The notes: generated by a model from the letters alone, not told the origin. Numbered from the stretch's first letter, positions 4,342 to 5,670 are shown. The stretch is 5,670 nucleotides of DNA from Candidatus Lloydbacteria bacterium RIFCSPHIGHO2_02_FULL_50_18 (GCA_001821395.1 MHLM01000009.1:1-5670); one strand, 5' to 3'. A program made the numbers and translations.

Positions 4342-5670
4342 TTCTTTAAGAGTTTGATCCTAGCTCAGGATGAACGCTGGCGGCGTGGATAAGGCATGCA
4401 AGTCGAGGGGGCACTCCACACAGAATGCGATCAATACATGATCGTCGATTGTGTGGAGTGTCACCGGCAAACGAGGTAGTAACACGTAGGAACGAACCGA
4501 GAAGTCAGGAATAACCCATCGAAAGATGGACTAATACTTGATAGTCCCGAAAGGGTAAAGATTTATCGCTTTTTGGTCGGCCTGCGGAATATCAGCTAGT
4601 TGGCGGTGTAATAGACCACCAAGGCTATGACGTTTAGGGGAGGTGAGAGCCTGACCCCCACCGATGGGACTGCGACACGGCCCATACACCTACGGGTGGC
4701 TGCAGTCGAGAATCTTCCACAATGGACGAAAGTCTGATGGAGCGACGCCGCGTGACTGATGAAGCATTTCGGTGTGTAAAGGTCTTTTATGAGGGATGAC
4801 ATAAGCGACAGTACCTCATGAATAAGGGGCTGCTAATCACGTGCCAGCAGCAGCGGTAATACGTGAGCCCCGAGCGTTATCCGGAATTATTGGGCGTAAA
4901 GAGTGCGTAGGCGGCGTAGTTAGTCTTCTGTTTAATCCTTCGGCTCAACCGGAGAACTGCAGAGGAAACGGCTATGCTTGAGCATGTAAGAGGTGAGCAG
5001 AACTCATGGTGTAGGGGTGAAATCCGTTGATATCATGGGGAATACCAAATGCGAAGGCAGCTCACTGGTACATTGCTGACGCTGAGGCACGAAAGCGTAG
5101 GTAGCGAATGGGATTAGATACCCCAGTAGTCTACGCTGTAAACGATGTTCTCTCGCCTTACGGAGTATCGACCCTCTGTGAGGCTAAGCTAACGCGTTAA
5201 GAGAACCGCCTGGGTAGTACGATCGCAAGATTAAAACTCAAAGGAATAGACGGGGACTTGCACAAGCGGTGGATTATGTGGTTTAATTCGATGGTACACG
5301 AAGAACCTTACCAGGGTTAGATATCCTATGGAAAGACTAAGGAAACTTAGTAACTCCGCAAGGACCGTAGGACAGGTGATGCATGGCCGTCGTCAGTTCG
5401 TGGTTTGAACTGTTCCCTTAAGTGGGGTAACGAACGCAACCCTTATCGTCTGTTACAAGTGTCAGGCGAGACTGCCCAGCCCTTTGAGCACAATCCAATC
5501 ATGAAAGAATTGATTGAGATTGCGAATAAGGGGCTGGGAGGAAGGTGGGGATGACGCCAGGTCAGCATGTCCCTTGATGCCCTGGGCTACACACATAATA
5601 CAATGGAGGTTACAACGGGCAGCGACCCAGCAATGGTGAGCTAATCCTTAAAAAGCCTTCTCAGTCCGGA
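4342..5670 (+). rRNA. rrs: 16S ribosomal RNA, 3'-partial, covering approximately E. coli positions 1 to ~1300 before running off the window end.
   Basis: AGAGTTTGATCCTAGCTCAG at 4349; GTGCCAGCAGCAGCGGTAATAC at 4841; GGATTAGATACCCCAGTAGTC; AAACTCAAAGGAATAGACGGGG; GCATGGCCGTCGTCAG; GGAGGAAGGTGGGGATGAC; all in canonical order and spacing. Confidence 0.95.

Follow-up and report, generated by a model that had tools for sequence, protein, structure and literature searches.

How does a 16S rRNA gene come to depart from the bacterial consensus at some of its most conserved positions, and what does this mean for the surveys that rely on those positions? The question is raised by a 5,670-nt stretch of DNA (hereafter, the window) from a Candidatus Lloydbacteria genome bin that has been public since 2016. 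A first-pass annotation, made from the sequence alone, placed a 16S rRNA gene in the last quarter of the window, read its odd bases as compensated changes of a deep-branching lineage, and proposed that standard amplicon primers would be unable to anneal. We found that the observation and its attribution to the Candidate Phyla Radiation (CPR) are correct, that the essentials are already present in the literature and in public genomes, and that the primer claim needs to be softened.

A 16S rRNA gene with compensated changes at conserved sites

A covariance-model search (cmscan) matched positions 4342–5670 of the plus strand to bacterial small-subunit rRNA (SSU_rRNA_bacteria, Rfam RF00177), with 1139 bits against a gathering threshold of 50 and E = 0. 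These coordinates coincide exactly with those first proposed. The match spans model positions 1–1297 of 1533, or approximately E. coli 1–1313, which is the first 85% of the gene; the 3' truncation is simply the end of the window, past which the last ~240 nt of the 16S lie. Because the 16S 3' end and the pairing partner of A921 fall outside the window, both were read from near-identical contigs. One of these, L121, is a 150-kb JGI contig that is 99.5% identical over the whole window and carries a full-length 16S of 1551 nt (L121:5147–6697; 1357 bits with the Rfam SSU model). Rfam and tRNA scans found no tRNA genes and no other Rfam families within the window. Conserved helices, including the 505–507/524–526 pseudoknot, keep standard base pairs in the Rfam alignment and pair count, and a second alignment covering 5040–5670 contains very few non-standard pairs. 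Features are collected in Table 1.

Numbering follows an alignment to E. coli K-12 rrsH, complemented by an alignment to 119 related 16S genes. The 16S of E. coli strain SMBL (RefSeq NZ_CP061914.1:1294952–1296470) was dropped as a numbering reference, being 1519 nt long and aberrant at ~380–790. It has a short helix 17 (h17) and a V3–V4 region that differs strongly from rrsH, and it resembles a chimera formed in assembly with 16S sequence from outside the enterobacteria.

Table 1 Features of the window, in window coordinates, with E. coli numbering for rRNA positions
Feature	Position	Strand	Details
3' end of a very large gene	1–785	+	3778-aa product in contig L122; NosD/beta-helix repeats
secD	1066–2598	+	Pfam SecDF_P1_head, SecD_1st, SecD_SecF_C
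secF	2605–3528	+	Pfam SecD_SecF_C, 1.4e-53
secF–16S spacer, 813 nt	3529–4341	+	72-aa ORF and two sigma-70-like sites
72-aa ORF	3640–3858	+	Called as a gene in several assemblies
16S (SSU) rRNA gene, 5' part	4342–5670	+	RF00177
27F target AGAGTTTGATCCTAGCTCAG	4349–4368	+	G21 to A (4362)
Expanded helix 6 hairpin	4405–4467	+	32-nt insert versus Rfam model; MFE −35.9 kcal/mol, z = −6.3
338–357 region ACACCTACGGGTGGCTGCAG, EUB338-II target	4686–4705	+	A340 (4688)–U349 (4697) in h14; U353 (4701)
530-loop pseudoknot 5' strand, 505–507 = UGC	4831–4833	+	U505 pairs with A526
515F target GTGCCAGCAGCAGCGGTAA	4841–4859	+	524–526 (GCA) at 4850–4852; A526 at 4852
Helix 24	5099–5132	+	A773 (5099)–U806 (5132), U783 (5109)–A799 (5125), G784 (5110)–C798 (5124)
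806R target ATTAGATACCCCAGTAGTCT	5113–5132	+	U806 at 5132
907R/926R target AAACTCAAAGGAATAGACGG	5234–5253	+	A921 at 5248, opens helix 28
Expanded helix 40 hairpin	5473–5541	+	54-nt insert versus 5 in Rfam model; MFE −35.1 kcal/mol, z = −6.2

Every base string quoted in the first-pass annotation occurs in the window, those for the 806R and 907 regions included. Its central claim was that A526 in the 530 loop is compensated by U505, preserving the pseudoknot. Both the bases and the pairing are borne out; the base at 505 was correctly called, but the string quoted for it, ctaatcaCGTGCC, begins at 507 and excludes 505. Pairs G506–C525 and C507–G524 are unchanged. The pseudoknot has the same three-pair geometry as in E. 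coli, differing in its first pair, which is G505–C526 in E. coli and U–A in the window. Position 526 is a streptomycin-resistance position in other bacteria. The 338 region had been described as EUB338-II type with a compensated 340/349 pair, and we likewise found no mismatches to EUB338-II and an A340–U349 pair in h14. U353 falls at an unpaired position of the Rfam consensus.

Several compensated or strengthened pairs extend this earlier account. In helix 24 (h24), C806U is offset by G773A, and the 'CCAG' of the 806R site is offset by U783 and G784, yielding the three pairs A773–U806, U783–A799 and G784–C798. Near the 5' end, G21A turns a U13–G21 wobble into U13–A21. The partner of A921 is U1396, as seen in the full-length L121 copy.

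We measured covariation in 98 related sequences at 33 pairs of h14, h18 with the pseudoknot, and h24. Standard pairs filled 99.5% of cells versus 86.7% after shuffling, with 0 of 500 shuffles as high, and only 36–49% when partners were slid in the same sequences. Changes on both sides were present in 21 of the 33 pairs, and the window sequence itself is paired at all 33. This pairing pattern is not due to chance, and the covarying pairs are borne out along with the gene. At 340/349, UA is found in 58 of the 98 sequences, AU in 39 and GC in one, with none unpaired; the corresponding counts at 773/806 are 93 GC and 5 AU, again with none unpaired. Among related loci having both positions, 921/1396 reads AU in 48, UA in 27 and is mismatched in 2.

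These observations indicate that the departures from consensus are lineage-specific substitutions fixed jointly with their pairing partners, such that the 530-loop pseudoknot and helices 1, 14, 24 and 28 keep Watson–Crick geometry. A decaying or non-functional rRNA pseudogene, in which the odd bases are mere mutations, could account for changes at sites that hardly vary across most bacteria (526, 340/349 and 921). We give that reading virtually no credence, since each paired change is compensated, the covariance-model score is high, dozens of species are fixed for the same states, and the contigs examined yielded no second 16S. We are instead very confident in the explanation as a whole: the segment is a single-copy-type 16S gene from aquifer metagenomes, belonging to an uncultured Candidatus Lloydbacteria-like organism (Parcubacteria/Paceibacteria, Patescibacteria/CPR), carrying lineage-specific compensated substitutions and encoding a normal, presumably functional small-subunit rRNA.

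Lineage of the gene and spread of its signature bases

The flank of the 16S gene ties the window to Lloydbacteria. Its SecF is residue-identical to Candidatus Lloydbacteria proteins OGZ05554.1 and OGZ09555.1 (NCBI), and window positions 1–4699 are 100% identical to MHLI01000009.1 of the metagenome-assembled genome (MAG) GCA_001818945.1. Identity to that MAG extends over the giant gene, secD and secF, across the spacer and 358 nt into the 16S, and includes the 338-region signature. The MAG contig ends at window position 4699; beyond it, L121 matches the 16S at only 97.8%, and another contig, L124, less well. Lloydbacteria (RIF45) were named on the basis of MAGs from the Rifle aquifer (Anantharaman et al. 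2016, PMC5079060), and NCBI taxonomy sets them within the Parcubacteria group of the Patescibacteria group. Together with Parcubacteria 16S relatives, these identities uphold the first-pass placement in CPR/Patescibacteria rather than a mainstream phylum. Among the A526-bearing GTDB loci listed, the closest 16S genes by BLAST come from Nomura-, Taylor- and Yonathbacteria and Paceibacteria MAGs at about 78–85% identity; the nearest named one is ~84% identical. A cultured relative above 95%, which the annotation had named as evidence that would count against it, is absent from the matches listed.

The upstream region offers further detail. The C-terminal tail of the giant protein is rich in Thr, Ser, Asp and Pro. 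The secDF–16S arrangement recurs in L009, L114, L113 and L024. Within the spacer, the 72-aa ORF has no convincing Pfam family, and the sigma-70-like sites lie at 3583–3611 (TTGACT-17-TATAAT, before the 72-aa ORF) and at 4048–4075, the latter being a candidate rRNA promoter.

How far do the signature bases extend beyond this locus? We scanned GTDB contigs, which represent one genome per species, with a query that is biased to A526. At least 120 loci in these species representatives contain the exact A526 19-mer, and 119 of those listed are 16S genes. Most of the A526 loci listed are Patescibacteria; the names on the 119 genes comprise 72 that are explicitly CPR, 19 'uncultured Gammaproteobacteria' and 8 others. 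U505 accompanies A526 in 108 of the 119. Among the A526 loci listed, A340–U349 is present in 46, the 338–357 20-mer is identical to that of the window in 30 of about 115, the 907-site 20-mer with A921 is found in 61 of 98, and the A773–U806 pair occurs in only 4. The 27F-site 20-mer is identical in 31 of 106 related loci.

Among the matches listed, all 13 signature positions are shared by L009 (Candidatus Nomurabacteria CG1_02_43_90) and L095 (MAG E14_maxbin.225_sub), yet their 16S genes are only about 84–85% identical to that of the window; 11 of 13 are shared by seven more. This distribution marks the signature as a clade trait of part of the Parcubacteria. It is not peculiar to the window sequence and is a documented trait of the group.

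The remaining 11 of the 119 listed genes keep G505 and have an uncompensated G/A opposition in the pseudoknot. Shapiro-, Woese-, Wirth-, Gribaldo- and Jorgensenbacteria, WWE3 and three Dehalococcoidia are represented, with Microgenomates-type loci among them. Labels on some A526 contigs are also out of place. Of 19 contigs titled 'uncultured Gammaproteobacteria bacterium' that carry the A526 19-mer, all except L035 have 530-loop flanks of Parcubacteria type that are identical to flanks in named CPR loci. Four MAGs named Nevskiaceae, Limisphaerales, Polyangiaceae and Pirellulales (L017, L031, L043 and L118) have a 16S with A526 and U505, and that of L043 is Parcubacteria-like. Such off-lineage labels are probably placeholder names or bin contamination.

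The window shares an identical 18-nt target with the Planctomycetales probe EUB338-II, and a few of the A526 16S genes come from records labelled Chlamydiae, Dehalococcoidia, Limisphaerales and Pirellulales. A gene from a non-CPR lineage that shares the signatures, such as Planctomycetota (the original target group of the probe), Verrucomicrobiota, Chlamydiota or Chloroflexota, would fit both facts. Such an origin is very improbable given the flanking SecF, identical to Lloydbacteria proteins, and the best 16S relatives listed, which are all Parcubacteria-type and alone hold the full 13-position signature. Moreover, the three Dehalococcoidia loci have uncompensated G505/A526, and the shortened h10 and h17 of the window are as described for CPR (PMC9297842). 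Planctomycete origin in particular, prompted by the EUB338-II match, is ruled out by genomic context and 16S relatives. The EUB338-II state common to the window and planctomycetes is either convergent or more widely distributed.

Remodelled helices and alternative 16S alleles behind one flank

We compared the peripheral helices of the gene with E. coli and with CPR relatives. The h10 and h17 regions are shortened, to 8 nt (22 in E. coli) and 39 nt (61 in E. coli), and the apex of helix 39 is deleted just upstream of the helix 40 (h40) expansion. The h6 region measures 67 nt versus 46 nt in E. coli. Published CPR rRNAs show gaps at h6, h10 and h17 (PMC9297842); h6 is reported to be commonly lost in them, whereas it is expanded in the window. 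Peripheral helices thus appear to be remodelled in CPR fashion: h10, h17 and the apex of h39 are reduced, h6 and h40 are drawn out into hairpins predicted to be stable, and the two expansions presumably stay in the mature rRNA. Among relatives, h40 ranges from minimal (CCCCCTCTCGGGGG) to more than 100 nt. Variable h40 expansions like that of the window are found in L022, L090 and L113; the h40 of L009 and L095 was not recovered in the alignment. The h40 of L121 folds to the same hairpin as the window through compensated changes, for example at 5484/5529 and 5485/5528, where U–A becomes A–U.

The annotation had also suggested looking downstream for introns, the anti-Shine–Dalgarno sequence and 23S linkage, and we did so on L121. 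Within the window, the 16S has no insertion or intron of 100 nt or more, its inserts being only 32 nt (h6) and 54 nt (h40). Long insertions occur in 42% of CPR 16S genes, and are therefore frequent but not universal (PMC9297842). We observed them in related loci: L124 has a ~700-nt insertion at about 8297–9004, near E. coli ~1400, that looks like a CPR-type insertion or intron, and L048 and L110 have ~0.8–1-kb insertions after AAGTCGT (about E. coli 1498), just before AACAAGG, which are long enough to encode protein and typical of CPR rRNA introns.

At the 3' end of the L121 16S, beyond the window, the sequence reads GGATCAATTCCAAT (L121:6650–6711), and the anti-Shine–Dalgarno CCUCC is absent (3' end GGAUCAAUUCCAAU). 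CCUCC is likewise absent from nine loci that are the nearest relatives of the window in this comparison, and from five further loci (L040, L060, L062, L063 and L088). Magasanik-, Uhr-, Falkow- and Doudnabacteria keep GGATCACCTCCTTT at this end. We rejected CCUCC loss as a novelty, the loss being published for a Parcubacteria subgroup (Tsurumaki et al. 2022, PMC9297842); as a known trait, it is also no argument against the gene being a 16S. No 23S or 5S gene was found within 7.6 kb 3' of the L121 16S. A tRNA-Ile(GAT) lies 1.5 kb after the 16S (L121:8236–8310), and three small ORFs between the two (L121:6698–8310) have no Pfam family. The rRNA genes appear to be unlinked.

Comparison with L121 and L124 revealed an ambiguity inside the 16S itself. 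The window and L121 have no differences in the 4341 nt upstream of the gene and 29 within it (2.2% of the 16S), all at 4754–5575. L124 is identical to the window through 4889, diverges progressively from 4890 and continues into a different downstream flank; its h40 contains a 112-nt stretch (7941–8053) where the window has 40 nt. The h40 insert varies in length among the three: compared with the roughly 54 nt of the window, that of L121 is 2 nt shorter and that of L124 about 70 nt longer. A further four contigs terminate at window positions 4369–4775. Look-ups with SecF and the 72-aa ORF yielded no contigs except those breaking off within the 16S or bearing a different variant of it, and an exact 39-mer of the window h40 expansion had no match in JGI metagenome contigs.

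With an identical 4.3-kb flank and differences confined to the 16S, it is uncertain whether the 3' part of the gene is linked to that flank. Identical flanks bearing 16S alleles diverged by 2–5% are probably the product of assembler path-switching among co-occurring relatives, and the 3' two-thirds of the 16S may come from a close relative rather than from the secDF-carrying genome. In its full form this would make the window an assembly mosaic, in which one Lloydbacteria population supplied the secDF flank together with the conserved first 400 nt of the 16S, a co-occurring close relative supplied the rest, and the 'gene' as written was never in one cell. We consider this possible, though less likely than not. 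It is favoured by the contrast between flank and gene in L121, the divergence of L124 into an unrelated downstream flank, the four truncated contigs, the unmatched h40 39-mer and the known fragmentation of rRNA regions in assemblies (Anantharaman et al., PMC5079060). However, almost all variable sites outside h40 are private to L121 or L124 in the three-way comparison, so the window is no patchwork of those two, and the differences are compensated in pairs, as in real alleles. The signature bases are identical in all three variants; a mosaic would therefore touch linkage only and leave the compensated signature unaffected. The chimeric assembly that the annotation named as a potential refutation is hence present as an ambiguity within the 16S that does not remove the signatures.

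The same pattern could reflect biology, with 16S segments truly replaced or recombined between co-occurring Lloydbacteria populations; h40 would then be an expansion segment particular to this Paceibacteria clade that evolves fast while preserving its structure. We regard this idea as improbable. In these metagenomes, contigs with an identical flank carry different 16S variants, and the 16S-to-genome linkage for this Lloydbacteria population is not trustworthy without read-level checks.

Primer and probe matching

The compensated signature bases bear directly on detection. In silico, primers 341F and 785R/805R match the window perfectly; one mismatch apiece is found for 27F, 515F and 806R (both versions of each), 534R and 907R/926R. 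These mismatches lie 7 (27F), 8 (515F), 9 (534R), 20 (806R) and 15 (907R/926R) bases from the primer 3' end. None is near a 3' end, and that of 806R is the 5'-terminal base. The mismatches reported in the first-pass annotation are therefore real, but its statement that they would prevent annealing is overstated, with one mismatch per primer and a perfect match for 341F/785R. Single mismatches away from the 3' end predict reduced and biased recovery rather than failure. For the 338 region, probe EUB338-I has 3 mismatches.

Similar effects are documented for the group at large. Only 6.3% of SILVA Parcubacteria are matched perfectly by V4-EMP primers, versus 55.6% for V3–V4 (Hu et al. 2024, PMC10943839), and V4-EMP primers under-recover Patescibacteria several-fold (PMC10943839, PMC13271367), a Parcubacteria/Patescibacteria primer blind spot that has been described repeatedly (PMC5644168, PMC13271367). 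Hu et al. made each V4 primer degenerate at one site, position 12 in 515F and position 1 in 806R (515F_Mod/806R_Mod; PMC10943839). The two V4 mismatches of the window fall at exactly those positions, and both modified primers match it without mismatches. V4-EXT is likewise among the adapted primers in this literature. PMC10943839, PMC13271367 and PMC5644168 treat these positions as a matter of primer design, and we found no discussion in them of the U505–A526 pairing.

The blind spot and its remedy, like the helix and anti-Shine–Dalgarno losses, are thus already published. What this locus offers is a clean, fully compensated example of why Parcubacteria are under-counted by FISH with EUB338-I and by 515F/806R amplicons. 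Reduced primer and probe matching of this kind would be one reason for the group's documented under-detection by amplicon surveys, and a Lloydbacteria-like organism such as this one would be matched by 341F/785R.
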